From Kofleriaceae bacterium (GTDB lineage Bacteria > Myxococcota_A > Polyangia > Haliangiales > Haliangiaceae), in the NCBI GenBank assembly GCA_033763475.1, contig JANRKM010000120.1, positions 64,001 to 81,976 of the forward strand: 17,976 nt of DNA, given 5' to 3'. The notes beneath the pieces were generated by a model. That model made no database searches. It was given only the letters and a program-made list of their open reading frames with translations, and had not been told where the DNA came from. A program made the position numbers and the translations under genes. Position 1 is the stretch's first letter. Each line of letters opens with the position of its first letter. Below, piece by piece: positions 134 to 13,220 of this stretch.

Positions 134-595
134 ATGCTGGCTCGCGCCTCCCCCATCCTCGTTGGTTCCGCCACCCTGCTGTTCGTCACGGCCTGCCCGG
201 CCGAGCCGTCTACCCCGCAGGTTCACGACGCGACCATCTCCACGATCGACGCCCCCGATCTCGGCGTCTTGGACTGCGCCGCCGTGTGCGAGCGCGCCTC
301 GATGTGCATCACCCAGGTAGGGCTCCGCTACGACGCGGCCGCGTGCGACGCGTTCTGCGGCGGCCTCAGCCGCGAGCGCATCACCGGCAGCTGCGGACGC
401 TGCCTGGTCGAGGCGGATTGCACGCAGGTCTACCGCGATCCCACCGCGCCCTTCTCCGTGGCGAATGGAAACCCGGGAGACTGCATCGTCGACTGTGGTC
501 TTGGTGAATGCAACCGCGACGGGGACTGCCCAGGCTCCATGCCGATCTGCGCGTACGACGCGGCCACAGCGCGCTTCCAATGCACCGACGCGTAG
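134..595 (+). CDS. Cys-rich secreted lipoprotein (hypothetical). Probable start is ATG 134 (MLARASPILVGSATLLFVTAC...); the track ORF starts at 23.
   Basis: The ORF 23..595 contains an internal Met followed by a hydrophobic stretch and a lipobox-like V-T-A-C, i.e. a signal peptidase II-type signal. The mature part has ~18 Cys in CxxC/CxxxC spacing. No recognisable enzymatic motif. High GC third-position bias is consistent with coding. Confidence 0.5.
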   Translation: MLARASPILVGSATLLFVTACPAEPSTPQVHDATISTIDAPDLGVLDCAAVCERASMCITQVGLRYDAAACDAFCGGLSRERITGSCGRCLVEADCTQVYRDPTAPFSVANGNPGDCIVDCGLGECNRDGDCPGSMPICAYDAATARFQCTDA

Positions 596-609
596 CGCTG
601 GGCGGTTTC

Positions 610-3600
610 ATGTCACTCCGCCGGTTGCTGCATCCGGCACAGACGCTTCCGATCGTCCATCGTAGATACGGTACGATCGAGCACGTGAGTGACCGAGCAG
701 GCGCCCCCTGCCTCGACGAGGAGTCCGTCCTTCGCTATCTCGACGGCCAGACCGACGAGGCGAGCGACGCCCACCTCGCCGACTGCGCGTCGTGTCGCTC
801 GCTGGTCCGGCTGGCCGCCGCGACGTCCCCGCGCGCGGTCGACACCGAGCAAGCCGCCACGCGCATCCGCCCATCGGTGCTCGGCGTGCGGTCGTCGCGC
901 GACGTGCTCTCCCCGGGCGACCGGCTCGGCCGCTACGAGATCGTTGCCCCGCTCGGCCAGGGTGGCATGGGGCTCGTCTACGAGGCGTTCGATCCCGAGC
1001 TCCAGCGCCATGTCGCGATCAAGCTCCTCCACGCATCGCGAGATCCGCGCATGCATGCGCAGCTCGTCCGCGAGGCGCGCGCGATCGCCCGCCTCGCACA
1101 TCCCCACGTCGTCGCCGTGCACGACGTCGGCGAGGATGGCGGTCGATCGTTCGTCGCGATGGAGCTCGTGCGGGGCGGCACCCTCGACGACTGGCGGCGC
1201 GCCCGCCCGCGATCCACGCGTGAGGTGCTCGCCATGTTCGCCGCCGCGGGCGCGGGTCTCGCGGCCGCGCACGCCGCAGGGCTCGTCCACCGCGACATCA
1301 AGCCCGCGAACGTGCTCGTCGGCGAGGACGGCCGGCCTCGCATCTCGGACTTCGGGCTCGCCATTCCCGACGCACCCGACGATCCGCACGCGCCCGTCGA
1401 AGCGCAGGCCGGGACGCCCGCCTACATGGCACCCGAGCAGCACGACGGCGGGGAGGTCGATGCGCGCGCCGATCAGTTCAGCTTCGCGGTGGCGCTGTAC
1501 GAGGCGCTCGCGGAGCGGCGGCCGTTTGGTGGCACCTCGCGGCGGGAGATCCGTGAGGCGATCGCGGCGGGCCCACCGCGCCTGCCCGCGCGCGTCCCGC
1601 GCCGCGTGAGCGCGGCGATCCACCGCGCGCTGCGCGAGGCGCCAGCGTCGCGGTTTCCCTCGATGAGCCCGCTGCTCGCCGCCCTTGCCCCGCCGCGGCG
1701 CCGCCTGGGACTGATCGCCGCGGGGAGTGCCGCGGCGATCGCGGCCGTCGCGATCGCTGGCGCGACGCGCGCGGGCGCTGCGAAGCCTTGCCTGCAGCTC
1801 GAACGACCACTCACCGCGGTCTGGGGACCGGCACAGCGCGCCAAGCTCGAGCGCGCGTTCACCACCGCGGGCGCACCGGCAGAGACGAGCGCGGCGGTCG
1901 CCGGGGCCCTCGACCGCTGGGCCGAGACCTGGAACGCGACGGCGATCGATGCCTGTCAGGCCGCGCAGGTTCGTCGCGAGCAGACACCCGCGCAGCAGGA
2001 GCTGCGCACCATCTGTCTGGACGAGCGGCTCGGCGAGCTGCGCGCGGTGACCGATCTGCTGGTCGCCGCGGACCGCGCGATCGTCGCCAGCGCGCACGCG
2101 ATGACGTCCTCGCTCGTGTCGCCGGCCGTATGCAACGAGCTCTCGACGCTCGGCGCGAAGGCGCCCCTGGTGCGCGGGTCGGCGCAGGAGCACGCGGTGA
2201 CCGCCCTCCGGCCGCGTCTCGCTTCCGTCCGTGCGACGCTGGCCGCTGGCGACGCCGCGAAGGCATACGCCCAGCTCGTCCCCCTGCGCGAGGAGATCGG
2301 ACGCACCGCGTATCGCCCGCTCGAAGCGGAGGCGGCCCTGCTCGCGGGCAGAGTCGCGCAGGCGCGTGGCCGGTTCGCCGAGGCCGAGACCGAGCTCGAG
2401 GCAGCCGTGCTCGCCGCGGAGGCGGGACGCGACGATCAAGCGGCCGCGGCGGCGTGGATCGCCTTGGCCCACGTGCGCGCCCGCGGACGCGGCGACCTCC
2501 GCCGGGCCACGGAGGCGCTCGCACACGCGGACGCGACGGTCGAGCGCCTCGGCGACGACCTCGAGGCCCTCGCCGCGCTCGCGTACGCGCGTGGCTCCAC
2601 CCTGCGGCAAAGCGGCGACTACCCGGGCGCCCGGGCCGCACTCGCGGAGGCCGTGCGTCGCTACGAGCGCGCGCGGGTCGATCGCACGCTCGAGCTGACG
2701 CAGGCCCAGCTCGATCTCGCGGGTGTGCTCGGCGCCCTCGGTGACCGGCAGGCAACGGCGACCGCCGAGGAGGCCCTCGCTCGCCGCCGCGCCGCGTTCG
2801 GTCCGGCTCACCCCGAGCTGGCGGCCGGGCTCGTCGTGGCCGCCTCGATCGCGGATCTCGAGCTCGATCCCACGCGCGCCACGCGCTACCTCGACGAGGC
2901 GGATGCGATCTACGCGCGCACCCTCGATGCGACGCATCCGCGACGCGCCCAGGCGCTGCAGATCCGCAGCAGTACCCTGATCTCGGCGGGCCGTCCCAGC
3001 GACGCCTTGGCCCCGGCGACCGCCGCACGCGACCTCCTCGCGCAGCACCAAGGCGAGGACTTCCCGGAGGTCGCGACGCTCGATGTCTGGATCGCCTTCG
3101 CGCGGTTCCATGCGGGAGATCACCTCGGTGCACGGGCCGACCTGGAGCGTGCGCTCGCCTTGCTCCAGCGAACGAAGGGCCCCGGCGCGCTGGAGGCCAT
3201 CAACGCGCGGGTCTTGCGCGTGCTCGTGGCGCATGCCGCCGGGGAGCAGGCTGCCGCTGAACGCGAGGCCAGGCAGGTGGTGGAAGAGGGGACGCGTGCG
3301 CTCGGTGATAACCACCCGCTGATGGCGAAGGCCTGGCGTGCGCTCGCGATCGTGATGACGGATCGCGCCCCCGGCGAGGCCCTCGCTGCGTACCGCCGCG
3401 TGCTGGCGATACGCGAGCAGCTCGGCGGGCCGATGCATCGCAGCGTCGCCGCCGCCGCGTACGAGCTCGGCGAGCACCTCCTCGAGCACGAACAGTTCGC
3501 CGACGCTGCGGTCCTGCTCGAGCGCGCGGTGACGATCGAGGAGCATCACGGCAGCGCCGGATCGGAGACGGCGCGCGGCGCCCGCATGCGCTGGGCCGAT

Positions 3601-3855
3601 GCGCTCCGCGCCCTCGCGCAGGAAGCGCGCGGTGTGGGCGTCCTCCAGGCACTGGTCACCGAGCTCGAACAGGCGACACCGCCTGACGATCTCCGGCTGC
3701 ACCAGGCCCGCCTGATGCTCGGCATCGACCTCGCGGCCACCGGCGGCGATCGTGCGCGTGCGCGTGCGCTGGTGCGCGCGGCGCGTGCGGCGCTGCGCGG
3801 GCGGGATCCGGACTCCGTGCGCATCGCCGACGCCTGGCTCCGCCGGCACCGCTGA
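610..3855 (+). CDS. Ser/Thr protein kinase (Hanks-type) with an N-terminal zf-HC2 (anti-sigma-like H-x3-C-x2-C) motif and a long C-terminal TPR/helical repeat region. The start is uncertain: ATG 610 or GTG ~688.
   Basis: Kinase subdomain motifs are read directly: GQGGMGLVYEA (Gly loop), VAIK (catalytic Lys), HRDIKPANVLV (catalytic loop), DFGLA, GTPAYMAPEQ. Upstream is LRYLDGQTDEASDAHLADCASCRSL, matching the YLDGEL...HLxxCxxC pattern of zinc-finger anti-sigma N-termini. Downstream is ~700 aa of Ala/Leu/Arg-rich helical repeats (TPR-like). The track ORF 508..3855 overlaps the previous gene, so an internal start is used. Confidence 0.85.
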   Translation: MSLRRLLHPAQTLPIVHRRYGTIEHVSDRAGAPCLDEESVLRYLDGQTDEASDAHLADCASCRSLVRLAAATSPRAVDTEQAATRIRPSVLGVRSSRDVLSPGDRLGRYEIVAPLGQGGMGLVYEAFDPELQRHVAIKLLHASRDPRMHAQLVREARAIARLAHPHVVAVHDVGEDGGRSFVAMELVRGGTLDDWRRARPRSTREVLAMFAAAGAGLAAAHAAGLVHRDIKPANVLVGEDGRPRISDFGLAIPDAPDDPHAPVEAQAGTPAYMAPEQHDGGEVDARADQFSFAVALYEALAERRPFGGTSRREIREAIAAGPPRLPARVPRRVSAAIHRALREAPASRFPSMSPLLAALAPPRRRLGLIAAGSAAAIAAVAIAGATRAGAAKPCLQLERPLTAVWGPAQRAKLERAFTTAGAPAETSAAVAGALDRWAETWNATAIDACQAAQVRREQTPAQQELRTICLDERLGELRAVTDLLVAADRAIVASAHAMTSSLVSPAVCNELSTLGAKAPLVRGSAQEHAVTALRPRLASVRATLAAGDAAKAYAQLVPLREEIGRTAYRPLEAEAALLAGRVAQARGRFAEAETELEAAVLAAEAGRDDQAAAAAWIALAHVRARGRGDLRRATEALAHADATVERLGDDLEALAALAYARGSTLRQSGDYPGARAALAEAVRRYERARVDRTLELTQAQLDLAGVLGALGDRQATATAEEALARRRAAFGPAHPELAAGLVVAASIADLELDPTRATRYLDEADAIYARTLDATHPRRAQALQIRSSTLISAGRPSDALAPATAARDLLAQHQGEDFPEVATLDVWIAFARFHAGDHLGARADLERALALLQRTKGPGALEAINARVLRVLVAHAAGEQAAAEREARQVVEEGTRALGDNHPLMAKAWRALAIVMTDRAPGEALAAYRRVLAIREQLGGPMHRSVAAAAYELGEHLLEHEQFADAAVLLERAVTIEEHHGSAGSETARGARMRWADALRALAQEARGVGVLQALVTELEQATPPDDLRLHQARLMLGIDLAATGGDRARARALVRAARAALRGRDPDSVRIADAWLRRHR

Positions 3856-3867
3856 GCCAGGCGCGGG

Positions 3868-3941
3868 CGCAAGAAATCGACGCGAGCCGCGCAAGATCCG
3901 GCGACGAGCTTCGTCAGGGGACACACCCCAGGAGCAATCCC
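3868..3941 (+). promoter_or_regulatory. Conserved upstream/leader element A (core CTTCGTCAGGGGACACACCCCAGGAG at 3909-3934, with GGAG Shine-Dalgarno 7 nt before ATG 3942).
   Basis: Near-identical to the region immediately upstream of the next gene (4796-4859). The shared core is CTTCGTCA[G/A]GGGACAC(A)CCCCAGGAG, plus similar CGCAAGA/CGCAAAAAC-containing sequence further upstream. Confidence 0.4.
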
Positions 3942-4795: not shown

Positions 4796-4859
4796 TGCAC
4801 GCGCGAACGCAAAAACGCGGAGCGACCTTCGTCAAGGGACACCCCCCCAGGAGACACCC
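4796..4859 (+). promoter_or_regulatory. Conserved upstream/leader element B (core CTTCGTCAAGGGACACCCCCCCAGGAG at 4827-4853, with GGAG 6 nt before ATG 4860).
   Basis: Paralogous copy of element A at 3868-3941. Contains GAAC (4805-4808) and CGTC (4830-4833) at 21 nt spacing. This does not fit the canonical ECF spacing, so the promoter type is unassigned. Confidence 0.4.
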
Positions 4860-5615
4860 ATGCATCCCCGCGCTTTCGCCACGACGCCGAGCACGCCCCT
4901 ACCCCTCGAGGCCCCGATGCGCAGCCACCTTCTCGTCATCCTCTCGTGCATCGCCATCGCCGCCTGCGGCGCCGACGATCGCCGCGACGCGACCGCCCTC
5001 CCGCACCCCACCCCCACACCGCAGGGAGGCGCATCGCGATCGCGCCCCGCGCCTCCCCCGCCTGCGCTGCCCGCGCCCTCGCCCGCGCTGCCCGCGGCGA
5101 GCAGCGCCGAGCCGGATCGCGGTGGTTGTGCCGGCGAGGTCAACTATCCGTGCCCGGACGGCTTCGAGGACGGGTGCATCCGCCAGCGCACGACCGAACA
5201 CGTGTGTGTCGCCAAAGATGCCGAGGCGACCATTCCCTGCGATCGGCCGGCAACGCTGGGTTGCAAGAGCGGCATGCTCGACGCGTGCGCAGCGGCGCCG
5301 CCGTACGGCAAGCTCCACATCTGTGTCATCCCGGTGCCCAACCGCGCCGCCACCGCCACGCCGGCCAGCTCCGGCCTGTGGGCGCTACGCATCGAGTGCA
5401 GGAACGAGATCAAATACAGCTGCCCCTCGGGCCTCGAGAACGGCTGCATCGGGGCACGCACGACGTCCCACGTCTGCGTCGAATCAGGCGCCAAGGCGAC
5501 CGTGCCATGCGACCAGCCAGCCACGCTCGCCTGCAAGGACGGCATGGTCGACGCATGCACGACGTCGCCTCCGTTCGGGACGTTCCACGTGTGCGTGAAG
5601 CCGCGGGACGCCTGA
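4860..5615 (+). CDS. Secreted lipoprotein with two tandem 8-Cys modules (251 aa; alternative start ATG 4917, MRSHLLVILSCIAIAAC).
   Basis: Hydrophobic signal plus lipobox IAAC. A Pro/Ala-rich linker follows (PAPPPPALPAPSPALPAASS). Then come two homologous ~67 aa modules (VNYPCPDGFEDGCIRQRTTEHVCVAKDAEATIPCDRPATLGCKSGMLDACAAAPPYGKLHICV and IKYSCPSGLENGCIGARTTSHVCVESGAKATVPCDQPATLACKDGMVDACTTSPPFGTFHVCV). Confidence 0.6.
   Translation: MHPRAFATTPSTPLPLEAPMRSHLLVILSCIAIAACGADDRRDATALPHPTPTPQGGASRSRPAPPPPALPAPSPALPAASSAEPDRGGCAGEVNYPCPDGFEDGCIRQRTTEHVCVAKDAEATIPCDRPATLGCKSGMLDACAAAPPYGKLHICVIPVPNRAATATPASSGLWALRIECRNEIKYSCPSGLENGCIGARTTSHVCVESGAKATVPCDQPATLACKDGMVDACTTSPPFGTFHVCVKPRDA
5139..5609 (+). 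repeat. Intragenic tandem duplication (repeat 1 ~5139-5342, repeat 2 ~5407-5609) encoding the two 8-Cys modules.
   Basis: The nucleotide and protein similarity of the two blocks is visible by eye. Cys positions are fully conserved between copies. Confidence 0.7.
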
Positions 5616-5648: not shown

Positions 5649-8600
5649 TCAGCGCCCCGGACCGACGAGGAGGTCGGCCATGCGTCCCGGGTGAGCGACG
5701 CCGAGCGCGAGGAGCTCCGCTCGCCGTGCGTCGACGGCTGCGCGATCCGCACGTAGCTCGGCGGCCCGGAGCCCCGAGGCGGCCGCGTAGGTGAGCATGC
5801 CCTGCGTGGACCACCCTCGGGCGGCGCGCTCGAACGCGGAGGCAGCGCGATCCCGGTCGTCACTCATGAGCGCGATCTGTGCCTGAAGCGACGCGACGCC
5901 CGGCGTGAGGACGTCGCCGTCGGCGAGCACCGCGATCCCCTCCTCGAGGACCGATCGCGCGAGGGCGACGTCGGCGGTGCCGGCGCGCCACGCCGACGCG
6001 GCTGCATGCGCGCGCAGCAAGGCGAAGGTTCCGCGCGTGAGCGGTACGAGGGACGCGAAGATCCGGTCGAAGGCCGGCCGCGCCTCACCTTCGATCCACG
6101 CGCAGCTCGCGGCGGGGGTCTCGTAGACGCGGATCGCCGTCTCCTGCAGCATCTTCATCGAGGCGAACAGATCGTGCTCCCCTCGCTCCCCGGTGGACGC
6201 CTCCTGGAGCCGGGCCCGAGCGCGGTCCGGCTGATCGGCGGCGAGGAGCACCCACACGCTCGTCGACTGGAGCCAGCGTTGCGCGTTGAGGTCCTGGCGC
6301 GCCGCCGCCTCCGAGATCCAACCGTCGAGGACCGCGAGGGCACGCGCGGGATTCGCCCCGCAATATGCGTACGCGGCCAGGAGCGGGACGCGCCCCATCG
6401 CACCGTCGAGCACCAGCGGTGGCGTGGCGTTCCAGCAGAGCCGCTGCGCCGCCTCGAGCGTCGCCGTCGCGTCCCCCACGGAGCCCGCGAACAGCTCGAC
6501 GACACCGCGCAACAAGGTGTGGCGAGCACGCTCCTGCGTGCCGCCGACGCGGGCGACGAGGGCTTCGGACGCGTCGAGCGCGGCGCGGAAGAACGGGTGC
6601 CGTGGATCTCGCTGCGCGTTCGACATGACGTAGAAGAACAGCGCGCGGAGGACGCGCAGCGGGTGCCCGGCCTCCAAGGCGAGCTCGAGGGCGCGGGCGC
6701 TGACGAAGGCCGAGCGGACGTCGTTCTGGTTCAAGGCCTGCGCGGTCGCGAGGAGCAGGTCGATCTGCCGGAGCAGGCGCGGCGCGATCGCGTCCGCGTC
6801 GCGCGGCTCGAAGGCGAAGCCGCGCACGACGAGGCGCGCGCCGATGTTGATCGAGCCGGCGACGGCGACGTAGGGGTCGGCGGGAAGCGCGAGGCCGACG
6901 GCGGCGAGGGCCTCCCCGATCAGCGCCATCCCCTCGGTGAGGCGGCCGCTGATCAACAGGTGCTCGCCGGCCGTCGCGCGGAGCTGGGAGGCCCAGCCCA
7001 CCCAACCACCGTCGCTGGCGAGCGTCGCCGCGGCGAGGCAGATCCTCCCTGACTCGGCGCGGTGCCCCGCCAGCGCCATTGCGTCCGCCCACTCGAGGTG
7101 CAGCGCGAGCGCATCCTCCCCGGCGCTGAGCTCCGCCGCGGCCGCGTAGGTGCGCGCGGCGCGCTCGAAGGCAAGCGCGCGGGCTGCCTCGCGCGCGGCG
7201 CGGTGCATCCACGTGCGCGCCGGGCCTTGTCTCCCTGCCTCGCGGTAGTGCGTCGCGAGCACGTGCGCCGGTGGGTTGCGCCGGCCCTCGAGGAACTCCG
7301 CGAGCTCCGCGTGCGCCGCGCGATAGCGCTCGGCCGACAGCGACGCCTCGACCGTCTCGCGGACGCGATCGTGATAGACGTCCATCAACGACTCCGCGTG
7401 GGTGCCCGTGCGAATCAGGCCTTGCTCGCGCAGCTCATCGACCACCTCGGGGCGCCACCCGTCGAAGCCTGCCGCCAGGCACCCCATGCTCTGAGGGAGC
7501 GGCATCGCCGAGAGCGCCACGATCTCGAGCAGGCGCCGCGCGTCGGCCGACACCTGGTCCAGGCTGCGCCGCAGGTTGTCGCCCAGATCTCCCGCCTGCC
7601 AGCCGGTGGCCCCGAGCATGCGCGCCAGCACGTAGGGGTGCCCGGCGGAGGCGGCCCACGCGGCGTCGGCGGAGATTCCGCGCTGCGCGCTGCGCTCCAC
7701 GAGGGACGCGACCGCCGCGCGGTCGAGCGGTGGGACCGCAAGCGTGCCGACGTCGATGGCATCGAACGTCGCAGCGCGGGACAGGAAGGCCTCGAGCGCG
7801 CCCGAGGTTTCGGTCGCGCGCACGCGGAGCGTCGCCAGGAACATCACGGAAGGTGCGCGCACGAGCACCTCGGCGAGCAGCGAGAACGTGTCCTCGCCGG
7901 CCCATTGCAGATCATCGAGGAAGATGATCACCGGCGCATCCGCGGCGACGCCGGCGAGTAACGCCGCGAGCGCATCCGTCGCGTGGCGCCGGATCTCGTG
8001 CGGGCTGTGCGCGCGCACCGGTGGCTCGGTCCCTCGGAGAACGGCGTCGAGCCGACGCAGGACGGGGAACATGAGGCTCAGCGCTTCGGCGTGCGCGGGC
8101 ACGACCGCGCGCACGTACGCCTCGTCGGCGTGCACGAGGTAGTTGCACAGGCTGTCTACGGCCGCGTCGAGCCCCTTGAAGGGGACGGCCTCGGCTTCGT
8201 GGCAACGTCCGTCGAACACGTGCGCACCTCGTGCGGCCGCGCGGCGGCAGAGCTCGCGCGCCATCATCGACTTCCCGATGCCAGGTGGACCCTCGACGAG
8301 GCACAGCTGGGTGCGGAGACGCGAGCGCGCCAGCGATGCCTCGAGCCACGCGAGCTCCGCGTCGCGGCCGATCAGCTCGACGTCGGGGCGGAGCTCTCCT
8401 CGCGGGGGTGCGCCGCGAAATGCCGCGAGGATCTCGTGCGCGGGTGGCCGGTGGTCCGGATCCGCCGCGAGCATCCGCATGGCCATCGCCGCGAGGTGCG
8501 CGGCCGGGCCGGAGGGAGCGTCGATCGGCGGCACGGGTGCGTGGACCTTCGCGCGCGCCATCGCGACCGGGTTGGTCATCCACGGTGGGCGCCCGGCGAT

Positions 8601-9230
8601 CGTTTCGTACAGCATGACGCCAACCGAGTACCAGTCGCTCGCGGTGACCGGCGCACCAAGGCCCTGCTCGGGTGCCATGTACAGCGGTGTGCCGCCGGAG
8701 ACCGTCGGACCTCGGCCGAGCGGCTCCCAGGCGAGGCCGAAGTCGAGGAGGACGACGCGCCCGCAGTCCTCGACCAGGACGTTGTTCGGCTTGACGTCGC
8801 GGTGCAACGTCGCGGCGCGGTGGAGCGCCTCGATCGCGGCGCCGAGCTGCGCAAAGGCCGACAGCGTGTGCTCGGGGACGCGCCGGAGGTACTCGTCGAA
8901 CGCGCGTCCTTCGACGAGCTCCATGCTGAAGTACCAGCGATCACCCTCGCTGAACAGCTCGTACAACTTCACGAGGTTCGGGTGGCGCACGCCGGCAACC
9001 GCGCGAAACTCGTTCTTGAACCTGTAGATCGAGTCCGGATCGTCGTGGCGCAACGCCTTCAGGGCCACCGTCGTGCCATAGCGACGATCGCGCGCCTCGT
9101 AGATGTCGCCGAAGGTCCCGCGTCCGAGGCGCCGCACGATCTCGTAGCGATCGAGGCGCGGCATCGACGGCGCGCGCAGCCGGGGACCTGCCGCCAGTTG
9201 TCCGATGAGCTCGTCGAGGTCCCGCGCCAA
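5649..9230 (-). CDS. Ser/Thr protein kinase fused to a P-loop NTPase (AAA/STAND-like) domain and a C-terminal TPR/helical domain (1193 aa).
   Basis: The N-terminal kinase motifs are YEIVRRLGRGTFGDIYEA, VALK, HRDVKPNNVLV, DFGLA, GTPLYMAPEQ. They are followed by LIGRDAELAWL...LVEGPPGIGKS (Walker A) and a Walker-B-like hydrophobic-DD (VIIFLDDLQWA). Then come ~600 aa of Ala/Leu-rich helical repeats. A possible alternative start is the internal MPRLDRYEIV. Confidence 0.85.
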   Translation of the reverse strand: MARDLDELIGQLAAGPRLRAPSMPRLDRYEIVRRLGRGTFGDIYEARDRRYGTTVALKALRHDDPDSIYRFKNEFRAVAGVRHPNLVKLYELFSEGDRWYFSMELVEGRAFDEYLRRVPEHTLSAFAQLGAAIEALHRAATLHRDVKPNNVLVEDCGRVVLLDFGLAWEPLGRGPTVSGGTPLYMAPEQGLGAPVTASDWYSVGVMLYETIAGRPPWMTNPVAMARAKVHAPVPPIDAPSGPAAHLAAMAMRMLAADPDHRPPAHEILAAFRGAPPRGELRPDVELIGRDAELAWLEASLARSRLRTQLCLVEGPPGIGKSMMARELCRRAAARGAHVFDGRCHEAEAVPFKGLDAAVDSLCNYLVHADEAYVRAVVPAHAEALSLMFPVLRRLDAVLRGTEPPVRAHSPHEIRRHATDALAALLAGVAADAPVIIFLDDLQWAGEDTFSLLAEVLVRAPSVMFLATLRVRATETSGALEAFLSRAATFDAIDVGTLAVPPLDRAAVASLVERSAQRGISADAAWAASAGHPYVLARMLGATGWQAGDLGDNLRRSLDQVSADARRLLEIVALSAMPLPQSMGCLAAGFDGWRPEVVDELREQGLIRTGTHAESLMDVYHDRVRETVEASLSAERYRAAHAELAEFLEGRRNPPAHVLATHYREAGRQGPARTWMHRAAREAARALAFERAARTYAAAAELSAGEDALALHLEWADAMALAGHRAESGRICLAAATLASDGGWVGWASQLRATAGEHLLISGRLTEGMALIGEALAAVGLALPADPYVAVAGSINIGARLVVRGFAFEPRDADAIAPRLLRQIDLLLATAQALNQNDVRSAFVSARALELALEAGHPLRVLRALFFYVMSNAQRDPRHPFFRAALDASEALVARVGGTQERARHTLLRGVVELFAGSVGDATATLEAAQRLCWNATPPLVLDGAMGRVPLLAAYAYCGANPARALAVLDGWISEAAARQDLNAQRWLQSTSVWVLLAADQPDRARARLQEASTGERGEHDLFASMKMLQETAIRVYETPAASCAWIEGEARPAFDRIFASLVPLTRGTFALLRAHAAASAWRAGTADVALARSVLEEGIAVLADGDVLTPGVASLQAQIALMSDDRDRAASAFERAARGWSTQGMLTYAAASGLRAAELRADRAAVDARRAELLALGVAHPGRMADLLVGPGR

Positions 9231-11429: not shown

Positions 11430-12200
11430 GTGCTTGCCGTGCAGCGAACGCACAAGTTGCGCACCGACCGCGACTGGTTACCACCGAGCGTGTTGCGCAC
11501 GAGCCGCCTCCTTCGCACGGGCATGGTCGCGGGTGCGAGCGCGGCGGTCGTGGGCGCCGTCATCGCGGTGCCGGCGACGCTATTGCTCTGGAAGGGTCTC
11601 GTCCTCGGCGGGGCGGGCGCGGCGGTGGCCGGTGACCGCGCCGCGCGGACACTCCTCCGCCGCCAGGTCGCGCGCATGACGCGTGGCGAGATCGAGCTCG
11701 CCTCGGTCTCCGCGCGTGCCGAGGGTGAGCTCGTCGTCGTCCGCGGCACGGTCCAGACCGAGGCGCCGCTGCGCGGCGTGCTCGTCGAGCGCGAGGGCAT
11801 CTACCGCCGCATGATCCTCAAAGCGCGCGGCACCTGGGTGCACGAGGCCGCCGTCGACTTCACCCTTCTCGACACGGCCGGCAACTACATCCTCGTGCAG
11901 GCCGCCGGCGCGCGCTGGATCGTGCCCCCGCGCGAGCTTGTCACCTATCCCGCGACGCGGTTCCGCGGCGATCACGTGCCCGGAGAGCTACGCCAGCTCA
12001 CCGAGGGCCACTCCGAGCTCCTCGCCTTCGAGCAGGTGCTGCCCGTCGGTGCCAACGTCCAGGTCATCGGCTACAAGACCGCGAGCGCGGACGTCACGGG
12101 CGACGTCGTCGACTATCGCCTGCCGCCACAGCGCGCGACCTTGCGCTCGGGCCCCGACCTCCCGCTGGTGATCACCGCCATCGAAGACCTCGAGCGTTAG
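11430..12200 (+). CDS. Hypothetical protein with an N-terminal transmembrane segment (GTG 11430 or ATG 11523 start).
   Basis: Long ORF with coding-like GC3 bias. The hydrophobic segment is GASAAVVGAVIAVPATLLLWKGLVLGGAGAAV. No recognisable domain. Confidence 0.45.
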   Translation: MLAVQRTHKLRTDRDWLPPSVLRTSRLLRTGMVAGASAAVVGAVIAVPATLLLWKGLVLGGAGAAVAGDRAARTLLRRQVARMTRGEIELASVSARAEGELVVVRGTVQTEAPLRGVLVEREGIYRRMILKARGTWVHEAAVDFTLLDTAGNYILVQAAGARWIVPPRELVTYPATRFRGDHVPGELRQLTEGHSELLAFEQVLPVGANVQVIGYKTASADVTGDVVDYRLPPQRATLRSGPDLPLVITAIEDLER

Positions 12201-12204
12201 GAGG

Positions 12205-12421
12205 AGAGGGACGGTTTCAACTTGCACAACTTGCGGGCACCTATCTGCCCGACTTTGTTGGAAGGCGCGGGGACGGTTTCAACTTGCGGGACGCTTCGAA
12301 CGGTTCTGTGGGACGACGCAGTTCGTGTCTCACCTCGACGAAGTTGAAACCGTCCCGCGTGATTCGAACGATCCCGCGGAGATGCACGGTCGAAAGTTGG
12401 GCAAGTTGAAACCGTCCCTCT
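12205..12421. repeat. MITE-like repeat element with four copies of an 18 bp motif GGGACGGTTTCAACTTGC: direct copies at 12208-12225 and 12270-12287, inverted copies at 12340-12356 and 12401-12418. Terminal inverted repeats are AGAGGGACGGTTTCAACTTGC (12205-12225 vs reverse complement of 12401-12421).
   Basis: Copies and orientations were read directly. Spacers of 45, 52 and 44 bp are unrelated to each other. The element fills the gap between the stop codons of two convergent genes (TAG 12198-12200 and TAG on the minus strand at 12420-12422). Possible TAGG flanking duplication at 12198-12201 and 12421-12424. Confidence 0.5.
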
Positions 12422-13220
12422 AGGCCTGCACCGACACGCTGAACTTGAGGCCCGCGGCCTCCATCGAGTCCTTGATGCGCTCCATTGTCTCCGTCGTGAC
12501 GGCGCTGAAGTTGTCGACGCTGGTCCACGGTCGCACGTAGAGCTTCACGGACTCGGCGGTGATCTCGGCGACGTCGATCGTCGTCGGAGGATCGTGCTGC
12601 ACGCGCTTATCCTCGGCGACTACGTCCTCGAGGAGCTTGCGCACCCGCTTCAAGTCCGTCGCCTGGTTCACGCTGACCACCAGGTCCACCCGTCGCCGTC
12701 CCAGCACGGTCAGGTTCTCGATCGGCTGCGCGATGATCTGTCCGTTGGGGATCGTGATCTCGCGGAAGTCGCCGGTGATCAGGACGGTGTGGAACACCTT
12801 GATGCCCTCGACGCGCCCCAGGTACTTGCCGATCGCGACCAGGTCTCCGACCTTGTAGGGCCGCAGCACGATCAGCATCACGCCGGCCGCGAAGTTCGAC
12901 AGCGAGCCCTGCAATGCCAGGCCGATCGCGAGGCCCGCCGCGCCGATCACCGCGACGACGGCCGTGGTCTCGACGCCCAGCGAGTCGAGGGCCGCGATCA
13001 CCACCGCGACGATCGACACCGCGTACACGAGGTCGCTCAAGAACTTGCGCAGCGAGATGTCGAGTCGGCTGCGCTCCATGAGCCGCACGAAGCCCTTGGT
13101 GACCATGCGCGCGAACCAGCGTCCGATCAGGAACACCGTCAGCGCGACCAACAAGCGCACGGCAAACGGAACGAGGTGCACCTCCGCGAGGTGCTGTACG
13201 TCAGCCCAGGTCACATCCAT
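12420..13220 (-). CDS. Small-conductance mechanosensitive channel, MscS family (266 aa).
   Basis: N-terminal TM helices, then the MscS signature region LALQGSLSNFAAGVMLIVLRPYKVGDLV...G.VEGIKVFHTVLITGDFREITIPNGQI and a C-terminal alpha/beta domain. Confidence 0.8.
   Translation of the reverse strand: MDVTWADVQHLAEVHLVPFAVRLLVALTVFLIGRWFARMVTKGFVRLMERSRLDISLRKFLSDLVYAVSIVAVVIAALDSLGVETTAVVAVIGAAGLAIGLALQGSLSNFAAGVMLIVLRPYKVGDLVAIGKYLGRVEGIKVFHTVLITGDFREITIPNGQIIAQPIENLTVLGRRRVDLVVSVNQATDLKRVRKLLEDVVAEDKRVQHDPPTTIDVAEITAESVKLYVRPWTSVDNFSAVTTETMERIKDSMEAAGLKFSVSVQA

Follow-up and report, generated by a model that had tools for sequence, protein, structure and literature searches.

The described systems closest to the element treated here are dispersed bacterial repeats that are associated with Y1 tyrosine transposases. 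In REPIN-RAYT or REP-BIME-REPtron systems (REP, repetitive extragenic palindromic; RAYT, REP-associated tyrosine transposase), short extragenic inverted pairs fold as hairpins and occur in many copies, mostly at gene 3' ends, while the cognate Y1 gene has copies of the repeat on its own flanks (Bertels & Rainey, 2011, PMC3116915; Ton-Hoang et al., 2012, PMC3333891; structure 4ER8). TIRtrons contain RAYT-like genes, the TIRYT genes, that are flanked by inverted repeats sharing the sequence GGGGWSAS, and some of these repeats also occur in scattered form, singly, as dimers or in clusters (Di Nocera et al., 2013, PMC3733652). Most TIRYTs fall into subclass 2.1 of the TnpA-REP-like HUH enzymes and have DnaA_C-like or helix-turn-helix tails; no REP-like repeats were found beside subclass 2.1 genes (Quentin et al., 2018, PMC6006769). 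The present analysis concerns a 217-bp repeat array that fills the 219-bp gap between two convergent genes in a 17,976-nt stretch of DNA from a Kofleriaceae bacterium (contig JANRKM010000120.1, positions 64,001 to 81,976), in the following called the window; coordinates are window positions unless a locus is named. We consider it probable (about 0.7) that positions ~12201-12420 are a non-autonomous, gene-less miniature of a TIRtron/REPtron. By its sequence, the array belongs to a dispersed family present in metagenome-assembled genomes (MAGs) of Kofleriaceae, Haliangiales and other Myxococcales and in soil metagenomes.

The element is built around the 18-mer GGGACGGTTTCAACTTGC, which is present without mismatch at 12208-12225 and 12270-12287 on the forward strand and at 12401-12418 on the reverse strand. 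A fourth copy on the reverse strand, given in a preliminary description of this DNA as 12340-12356 with one mismatch, spans 12339-12356 and has two mismatches, its first 16 nt (12341-12356) being exact. The arrangement of two direct and two inverted copies reported there is real: when up to three mismatches are allowed, the entire window contains these four matches and no more, the chance expectation is 0.01 and not one of 200 shuffles reaches four. The outer copies extend to perfect 21-nt inverted repeats at 12205-12225 and 12401-12421, again as described before. Within each window arm the direct copies follow each other at a start-to-start distance of 62 nt, the norm in the family being 61 nt. 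The spacers had been regarded as mutually unrelated, a view that has to be corrected for the two 44-nt spacers, which are inverted copies of each other: 12226-12269 and the reverse complement of 12357-12400 agree at 23 of 44 positions, compared with 11.4 +/- 2.9 by chance, a value reached in 3 of 5000 shuffles. As a whole, the 81-nt arms are 74% complementary. Smaller recurrences already pointed out, CAACTTGCG twice in copy 1 and the TTCGAACG pair, are present as well. The G+C content of the element is 58% as opposed to 70% for the window.

Searching related genomes for the motif, as the preliminary description had proposed, did reveal dispersed copies. When one genome per species was scanned, the exact 18-mer was encountered in 41 genome loci, the window's own locus not being among them. 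Four Myxococcota MAGs account for thirty-five of these, two from Myxococcales with 19 and 12 loci, one from Haliangiales with three and one from Kofleriaceae with one; the remaining six stand alone in unrelated taxa and are apparently chance matches. A degenerate pattern run against metagenome contigs added 11 further high-GC soil contigs. About 140 units of the family were counted in 49 loci. When mismatches are permitted, a common layout, seen in at least 14 loci (for example L004, L009, L010, L017, L023, L025, L036, L039, L041, L057, L061, L064, L076 and L079), has a pair of forward units spaced by 61 nt, then a centre whose length varies, and finally a reversed pair with the same spacing. 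The centres range from about 20 to more than 400 nt and are free in sequence. Compact versions are about 200 nt long and resemble the window element; two-unit doublets of 111-133 nt (L011, L012, L021, L022) and solo arms also occur.

In an alignment of 29 arms the outer unit of about 61 nt reads gGGGACGGTTTCAAC-TTGCG-CAACnTGCG-ATC..G.AAc..cgcGa.atca...GGGG.ctG, and the inner unit is truncated to GGGGACGGTTTCAACnTaCGCAACga with no conservation beyond. The cores are nearly invariant; the rest of the arm is about 45-50% identical between copies. This core conservation fits either recognition by a transposase or a function for the host, and is in part an ascertainment effect of a search that was based on the core. 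A family profile from which the window was left out matches both window arms (E = 4e-16 and 5e-14 over ~83 nt). The duplicated CAACTTGC proved to be a 9-nt tandem repeat that is present in one or two copies per unit. An apparent covariation of N in CAACNTGCG CAACNTGCG was rejected as base pairing: N reflects identity between the two tandem 9-mers, and since the variable base is the same in both copies and the copy number varies, slippage is the explanation.

Two observations on related arrangements may be added. At L031 3869-4470, four to five units cluster on the same strand in a larger composite arrangement seen nowhere else, and a block of about 100 nt that follows two of these units (3871, 4340) is repeated there nearly exactly. 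A second, related repeat family (GGGGTCAGAC...CAACTT...) is represented at L084 2757-2835 and at L050 3902-3944 and 4610-4652. Its copy in L084 is an 80-nt palindrome squeezed between the stop codons of an esterase gene and its neighbour.

The connection to a transposase was seen in relatives of the window organism. A search for orthologous pairs between two MAGs gave a single overlap (L015/L030), which yielded the transposase and no empty site; in both regions an open reading frame (ORF) begins just inside an arm. Its product (...YHCI.RFVD...SNHIHLAM...IAYIHNNPVRAG) contains an HUH motif and a catalytic tyrosine. Homologous Y1 proteins, of which a collection of 5.8 billion proteins holds only 17, keep the SNHIHLA and IAYIHNNPVRAG motifs, and YIHNNP is conserved. 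Pfam at E < 0.01 overlooked these genes, and only reading of the sequence brought them to light. All ten proteins tested match the NCBIfam entry NF047646 'REP-associated tyrosine transposase' (best match 6e-13, 48.9 bits). For an AlphaFold model of protein P0122 (pLDDT 86.6), the top Foldseek match in the PDB is 4ER8, E. coli TnpA-REP with a REP hairpin (E = 7e-9, TM score 0.71), followed by the ISDra2, IS608 and IS200 transposases of the IS200/IS605 group.

In L015, L030, L049 and L086 the Y1 gene begins 35-110 nt inside an arm. It is flanked by two units about 60 nt apart in L015, L049 and L086 and by a single unit in L030; in L049 arms are present on both sides of the gene and form a 38-nt inverted repeat (89%). 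As the same two-unit ends thus flank a Y1 gene, the window element can be understood as a gene-less miniature of that structure. The second ORF of L049 encodes a weakly Bac_DnaA_C-like protein (E = 0.0012) that is homologous to the C-terminal part of a 338-aa protein from L015, and a CoA-transferase gene is a common neighbour in L015 and L049, suggesting that the transposase locus is inherited vertically. The ORFs that lie between widely separated inverted copies (L015, L031) are ordinary genes or Y1 genes, and no DDE transposase was detected in the ~0.5 Mb examined. The 54%-identical Y1 homolog of L050 is surrounded by different inverted repeats of 43 nt, which begin with the head of the GGGGTCAGAC family; a palindrome of the L050 type is located at a gene end in L084.

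Some details of the Y1 genes themselves deserve mention. Two tandem paralogs lie between the arms of L015 (4015-5031 and 5467-5730, both on the reverse strand); one is truncated after about 88 aa, and in the other, of 338 aa, HUH is replaced by HVQ and the catalytic tyrosine by histidine. The Y1 gene in L086 is called from a start (1454) that runs into the inner repeat unit; an ATG farther on, near 1508, agrees better with the homologs. The TAG stop codon of the TENA/THI-4 gene upstream of it (681-1412) lies inside the outer unit.

Two pairs of filled and empty alleles document insertion. The closest relative of the window's mechanosensitive channel protein MscS is 81% identical (L042-L044), and the gene order LysR, MscS, 230-aa gene, scramblase is kept. 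In L042 the two convergent genes overlap by 4 nt at CTAG and there is no element (...GATCGCTAGGCCGGC...), an empty orthologous allele of the kind for which the preliminary description had recommended a search. The corresponding window junctions are ...GAGCGTTAG-GAGG-AGAGGGAC...GTCCCTCT-AGGCCTGC. The allele comparison shows that the insertion took place in an ancestral CGC-T|A-G-GCC, where the TAG of the upstream gene overlapped that of MscS (CTA on this strand). Since the element starts with AG and ends with CT, each gene regained a TAG at the same codon position. Both neighbours do end in TAG at the element borders, as stated before, and both are real genes: one has Pfam MscS domains, and the 230-aa ortholog of the other in L042 is 79% identical and has the same terminal residue.

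The second pair is formed by L016 and L083, whose esterases are 97% identical. The L016 element is situated between a 184-aa gene and the 868-aa esterase gene, both of which end in TAG directly on GGGAC, and in L083 the same two genes lie 3 nt apart without an element (...CAG TGA TCG CTA CGGGATGACC...). Both original stop codons are gone in L016, the new TAGs being composed of T from the flank and AG from the element. Both insertions lie exactly between abutting or overlapping convergent stops, and a TAG is restored at either border. In relatives more distant from the window locus the neighbours are different, the gaps measure 4-15 nt and the element is lacking. The proposal that the element inserted into, or duplicated, a TAGG target is borne out insofar as the empty site CGCTAGGCC contains TAGG once and the window has it on both sides; as a general rule the duplication does not hold, most elements being bordered by TAG and TGA. 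The simplest reading of the window junction would be placement of an AG-starting, CT-ending element between T and A of CTAG, which needs no duplication, while duplication of TA, TAG or TAGG stays compatible with the window/L042 pair taken alone.

Apart from the junctions proper, recurrent features were noticed close to the insertion points. Both independent empty sites hold GATCGCTA, at L042 ~1640-1650 (GATCGCTAGG) and at L083 ~4855-4865 (TGATCGCTACGG), which could be a target preference or a coincidence; in filled sites GATC(N)G is often present just outside GGGAC. Directly outside many element ends there are short tandem duplications of 8-14 nt, in which the last bases of the flank are joined to GGGA/GGGACGG, the element's first 4-7 nt (L002 ~7395, L003 ~696, L012 ~7625, L014 ~5875, L021 ~7243, L023 ~2540, L024 ~7296, L032 ~2107 and ~2252); examples are CTGAGGGCTGGGGA twice in L023 and GGGACGGATCG twice in L003. 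Window positions 12199-12210 possibly represent one of them. By analogy with these family ends, the extra AGGAGG (12199-12204) may have arisen by tandem duplication of AGAGGG near the end of the element. Slippage at the foot of the hairpin and abortive strand transfer are candidate mechanisms for the duplications.

In the family, element ends are enriched close behind stop codons. In total, 53 of 85 outer ends (62%) are found at most 15 nt downstream of the stop codon of an ORF of at least 80 codons, compared with 6.3% of random positions in the same loci (p = 6e-42). The stops concerned are TAG in 28, TGA in 23 and TAA in two cases, whereas TAG makes up 23% in the control (p = 3e-6). Distances between end and stop fall into two main groups, of -1 to 1 nt and of 3-6 nt, the second of which bears a remnant (g)ctg of the tail of the preceding unit. 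At both ends of convergent pairs the heads lie 0-12 nt past the stops. Among 20 complete elements no constant target duplication is apparent, and in most of them one end is bordered by TAG and the other by TGA. In solo arms, 1-14 nt separate the head from a stop, and the tail is 16-109 nt away from the next gene; because most of them also lie between convergent genes, this polarity is inseparable from decay of a partner arm.

Folding of the region, another step suggested at the outset, gives one long hairpin for either strand (-123 and -111 kcal/mol, z about -7.9). A scan of the element for promoters and terminators found a sole terminator-like hairpin at chance level and no U-tract terminator. 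The window has no match to Rfam at or above a family's gathering score and contains neither a tRNA nor a tmRNA. The hairpin in question is small and G+C-rich (12234-12251) and is followed by ACTTTGTTGG; terminator-like as it looks, it does not exceed chance.

Table 1. Parts of the window element and its flanking genes (window positions) and loci of relatives containing a Y1 transposase gene (rows beginning with a locus name).
Feature	Position	Strand	Remarks	Basis
Purine-rich GAGGAGA	12201-12207	+	between stop codon and GGGAC; last three bases (AGA) lengthen the terminal inverted repeat	sequence
Left terminal inverted repeat, 21 nt, AGAGGGACGGTTTCAACTTGC	12205-12225	+	includes outer-left core unit	
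Tail of outer-left 61/62-nt unit	12226-12269	+	second CAACTTGCG copy; small hairpin 12234-12251	homologous to family unit and to right-hand spacer
Inner-left core unit, exact 18-mer	12270-12287	+	62 nt after outer unit; 61-nt phasing recurs in family	
Variable centre, 51 nt	12288-12338		degenerate unit starts GGGACGC (12288) and GGGACGACG (12310)	not conserved among family members
Inner-right core unit, 16/18 match	12339-12356	-		motif matching
Tail of outer-right unit	12357-12400	-		family alignment
Right terminal inverted repeat, 21 nt	12401-12421	-	includes outer-right core unit; last bases overlap MscS stop codon	
Upstream flanking gene, 256-aa ORF, function unknown	11430-12200	+	TAG stop 12198-12200, first bases of the insertion directly after	ORF list
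Downstream flanking gene, MscS small-conductance mechanosensitive channel	12420-13220	-	TAG stop 12420-12422	Pfam MS_channel domains
L049, soil contig	units 343 and 405; gene 457-1044; second ORF 999-1313; inverted units ~1303 and 1360-1372		first two units ~60 nt apart	
L086, Kofleriaceae MAG	GGGGACGGTATCAAA at 1395; GGGGACGGTAGCAAA at 1456		61 nt apart, then gene; one flank seen	
L015, Myxococcales MAG	unit 4006; units 5765 and 5826	+; -	two tandem Y1 genes between the units	
L030			orthologous to L015 region; one flank seen	
L050, Myxococcota MAG			54%-identical Y1 homolog within different 43-nt inverted repeat, GGGTCAGACACAACTTGTACAACTTGTGTCCGG	

Among the known systems the TIRtron/TIRYT class is the best fit. 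As in TIRtrons, a RAYT-like Y1 gene lies within inverted repeats that are not classical REPs, and in the genomes of the relatives the repeats are likewise dispersed as singles, dimers and clusters. The family A head GGGGACGG agrees with seven of the eight positions of GGGGWSAS (the window copies being aGGGACGG, gGGGACGG and cGGGACGG), and the head of the sister family B, GGGGTCAG (L084, L050), agrees with all eight. The protein combines HUH and tyrosine motifs with a weakly DnaA_C-like helix-turn-helix tail. Unlike the TIRtrons described so far, each end here consists of two units in 61-nt phase, a layout that the miniatures keep, and the filled/empty pairs give direct evidence of insertion. 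In contrast to subclass 2.1 genes in general, the flanks of the Y1 gene are the dispersed family itself. The traits of REPIN-RAYT systems named above also return: hairpin-forming inverted pairs of short extragenic repeats, a large number of copies that lie mostly at gene 3' ends, a cognate Y1 gene with the repeat on its flanks and TnpA-REP as the top structural match of the Y1 model. On the other hand, the GTAG (or CGTC) head of REPs is missing; the head is GGGGACGG, and GTAG arises only where a stop codon abuts the element. Further differences are the freely varying centres and the score of the Y1 protein, which does not reach the NCBIfam cut-off for RAYTs. The cut made by E. coli TnpA-REP is at C|T (PMC3333891), whereas the junctions here are T|AG and CT|A. 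The family and its hosts (Kofleriaceae, Haliangiales) are absent from the RAYT, REPIN and TIRYT papers searched, in which mentions of Myxococc* amounted to zero; this is a limited literature and no proof of novelty.

For the miniature the following picture emerges. Each window arm corresponds to one flank of the transposase gene, with an outer 61-nt unit starting with (G)GGGACGGTTTCAAC followed by a truncated inner unit, and the two arms face each other over a short, non-conserved centre. The family's Y1 transposase, presumably encoded elsewhere in the genome, would spread the copies in trans. Extrapolating from the enzyme class, it would bind and cut folded single-stranded DNA (PMC3333891), with the conserved GGGACGGTTTCAAC cores as its probable recognition sites; the probable substrate would be the long hairpin into which the facing arms fold. 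Transcripts of either flanking gene would carry a very stable hairpin just past the stop codon, which might act in a REP-like manner as a two-way barrier to transcription or as a protector of the mRNA 3' end.

A number of findings weigh against assigning the window element to this class. The window contains one element and no Y1 gene, and both transposase copies of L015 look inactive although that genome is rich in repeat copies. The NF047646 scores stay under the curated cut-off of 80 bits, Pfam Y1_Tnp is matched by eight of the ten proteins and likewise under its curated cut-off, and a PDB sequence search with the Y1 alignment gave no match. The units are not imperfect palindromes of 20-40 nt as classical REPs are; within the arms there is neither conserved secondary structure nor covariation, the alifold consensus is trivial and single arms fold differently, so that they are not REPs in the strict sense. 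Neither junction is clean, six extra purines (AGGAGG) being present at the left end of the window element and nine flanking nucleotides missing from L016, and not every family member has AG...CT ends. Similarity between arms in the variable columns is scarcely higher within an element than between elements (0.52 vs 0.45), and no centre is shared between any two sampled elements, including searches with the L016 and window centres, the sampled portion being about 1-2% of each genome. The 219 bp may therefore have moved either together or arm by arm; in the latter case the arm rather than the four-unit element would be the moving unit, with the variable centres made at insertion.

The rivals of a Y1-dependent miniature differ in the origin or in the task that they ascribe to the array. 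The preliminary description had spoken of a MITE-like (miniature inverted-repeat transposable element) non-autonomous element, and the dispersal in relatives together with the empty orthologous site sustains the non-autonomous, mobile side of this idea; the element is not a classical cut-and-paste transposon of which the repeats would be subterminal sites, the ends flanking instead a Y1 (HUH) transposase. A classical MITE would be a deletion derivative of a DDE insertion sequence, either IS630-like with a CTAG target and TA duplicated or IS5-like with CTAG duplicated, moved by double-stranded cut-and-paste with binding sites of the inverted repeat-direct repeat type. Perfect terminal inverted repeats of 21 nt, the presence of a further, inner copy in each arm and the size of 219 bp are what such an origin would lead one to expect, and the CTAG empty site with (T)TAG...CTAG borders in the window fits duplication of TA, TAG or CTAG, as does TA on both sides in L016. 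Correia/NEMIS, RUP and ERIC elements resemble the array too, being 100-300 bp long, non-coding, bounded by terminal inverted repeats, located beside genes and able to form strong transcript hairpins, but they derive from DDE insertion sequences and have fixed target duplications such as TA. An IS630-type TA duplication, which would suit the window and L016, does not suit the many elements with TGA on one side; the complete elements show no consistent duplication, and the L016/L083 flanks reveal replacement of the stops and loss of nucleotides instead. No DDE transposase lies between or beside any copy in the sequence inspected, and the gene that bears these ends in four genomes, the autonomous relative in the terms of bacterial MITEs, encodes a Y1/HUH enzyme. 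A DDE-derived MITE is accordingly very improbable.

Two further alternatives assign the repeats a role for the host. If the cores were under selection for a function behind the stop codon, as a two-way terminator or insulator or as a site for a host protein, mobility would be only the means of spread. The near-invariant cores in otherwise diverged arms, the heads close behind the stops of convergent pairs and at solo arms and the very stable fold of both strands are in line with such a module, and REPs have been reported to influence termination and mRNA stability. It is nevertheless rather unlikely, given that the closest relative's locus works without the element, that the only terminator-like site is at chance level and lacks a U-tract, that neither an Rfam match nor covarying structure within the arms was detected and that conserved cores are equally expected of transposase recognition sites, quite apart from their ascertainment by the search. 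A domesticated gene-end system is a related idea, which we regard as unlikely as well, if worth keeping in mind: arms would attach head first to stop codons, AG would complete TAG, overlapping convergent genes would be split without lengthening of their proteins, the arms would serve as two-way insulators and a vertically inherited Y1 enzyme would maintain and re-seed them. That the array is a four-site operator through which one regulator acts on both flanking genes had been the other suggestion of the preliminary description. Four near-identical, regularly spaced 18-mers and the LysR gene beside MscS spoke for it; it is effectively refuted by the position of the sites downstream of both genes, by the many loci, spread over the whole genome, in which the motif occurs at the ends of unrelated genes and by a relative in which the same LysR-MscS neighbours do without the sites. 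A promoter for either neighbour had reasonably been discounted, both genes converging on the element. The period of 61-62 nt matches that of type I CRISPR arrays, and the repeats are direct within each arm. A degenerate CRISPR-like mini-array with repeats of ~28 nt and spacers of ~33 nt is nonetheless refuted: the 'spacers' are homologous between loci and between arms, an arm never has more than two units, the arms are inverted and a Pfam scan of the ten large ORFs of the window, which was not a dedicated cas search and did not cover smaller ORFs, found no Cas domains.

As to the surroundings of the element, Pfam gives only a weak DUF4440 match for the 256-aa ORF on the upstream side. Homologs of the window MscS are 100% and 81% identical, and its gene adjoins one for a LysR regulator. 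Farther upstream, an inverted repeat at 3825-3869 (19-nt arms, 84% complementary, 7-nt loop) spans the stop codon of a gene for a 1115-aa Ser/Thr kinase with TPR repeats (508-3855); it looks like a gene-end hairpin and is unrelated to the repeat family. A second large Ser/Thr protein kinase gene, with an AAA/STAND ATPase domain, is located at 5649-9230; two such genes are typical of Myxococcota and accord with the Kofleriaceae label of the 100%-identical MscS entry.

Reading the array as a Y1-dependent miniature accounts for an otherwise unannotated gap of 219 bp and for a motif that gene callers will meet at many gene ends of Kofleriaceae and Haliangiales. For annotation this matters in practice, since in L086 both the start call of the transposase gene and the stop of the gene upstream run into repeat units. 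The array is thereby largely explained, as mobile DNA of an already known kind, with two-unit, 61-nt-phased ends common to the transposase locus and the miniatures as its distinguishing trait. A small Y1 enzyme and a defined, non-palindromic core of 14-18 nt make up a tractable system for recognition of the TIRYT type. To our knowledge, there has so far been little evidence that repeats linked to REP-type tyrosine transposases actually move. The two filled/empty pairs, one with a 97%-identical flanking protein, show insertion at base resolution, and insertion that rebuilds the stop codons on both sides suggests a way in which such elements colonise compact high-GC genomes without damage to genes.

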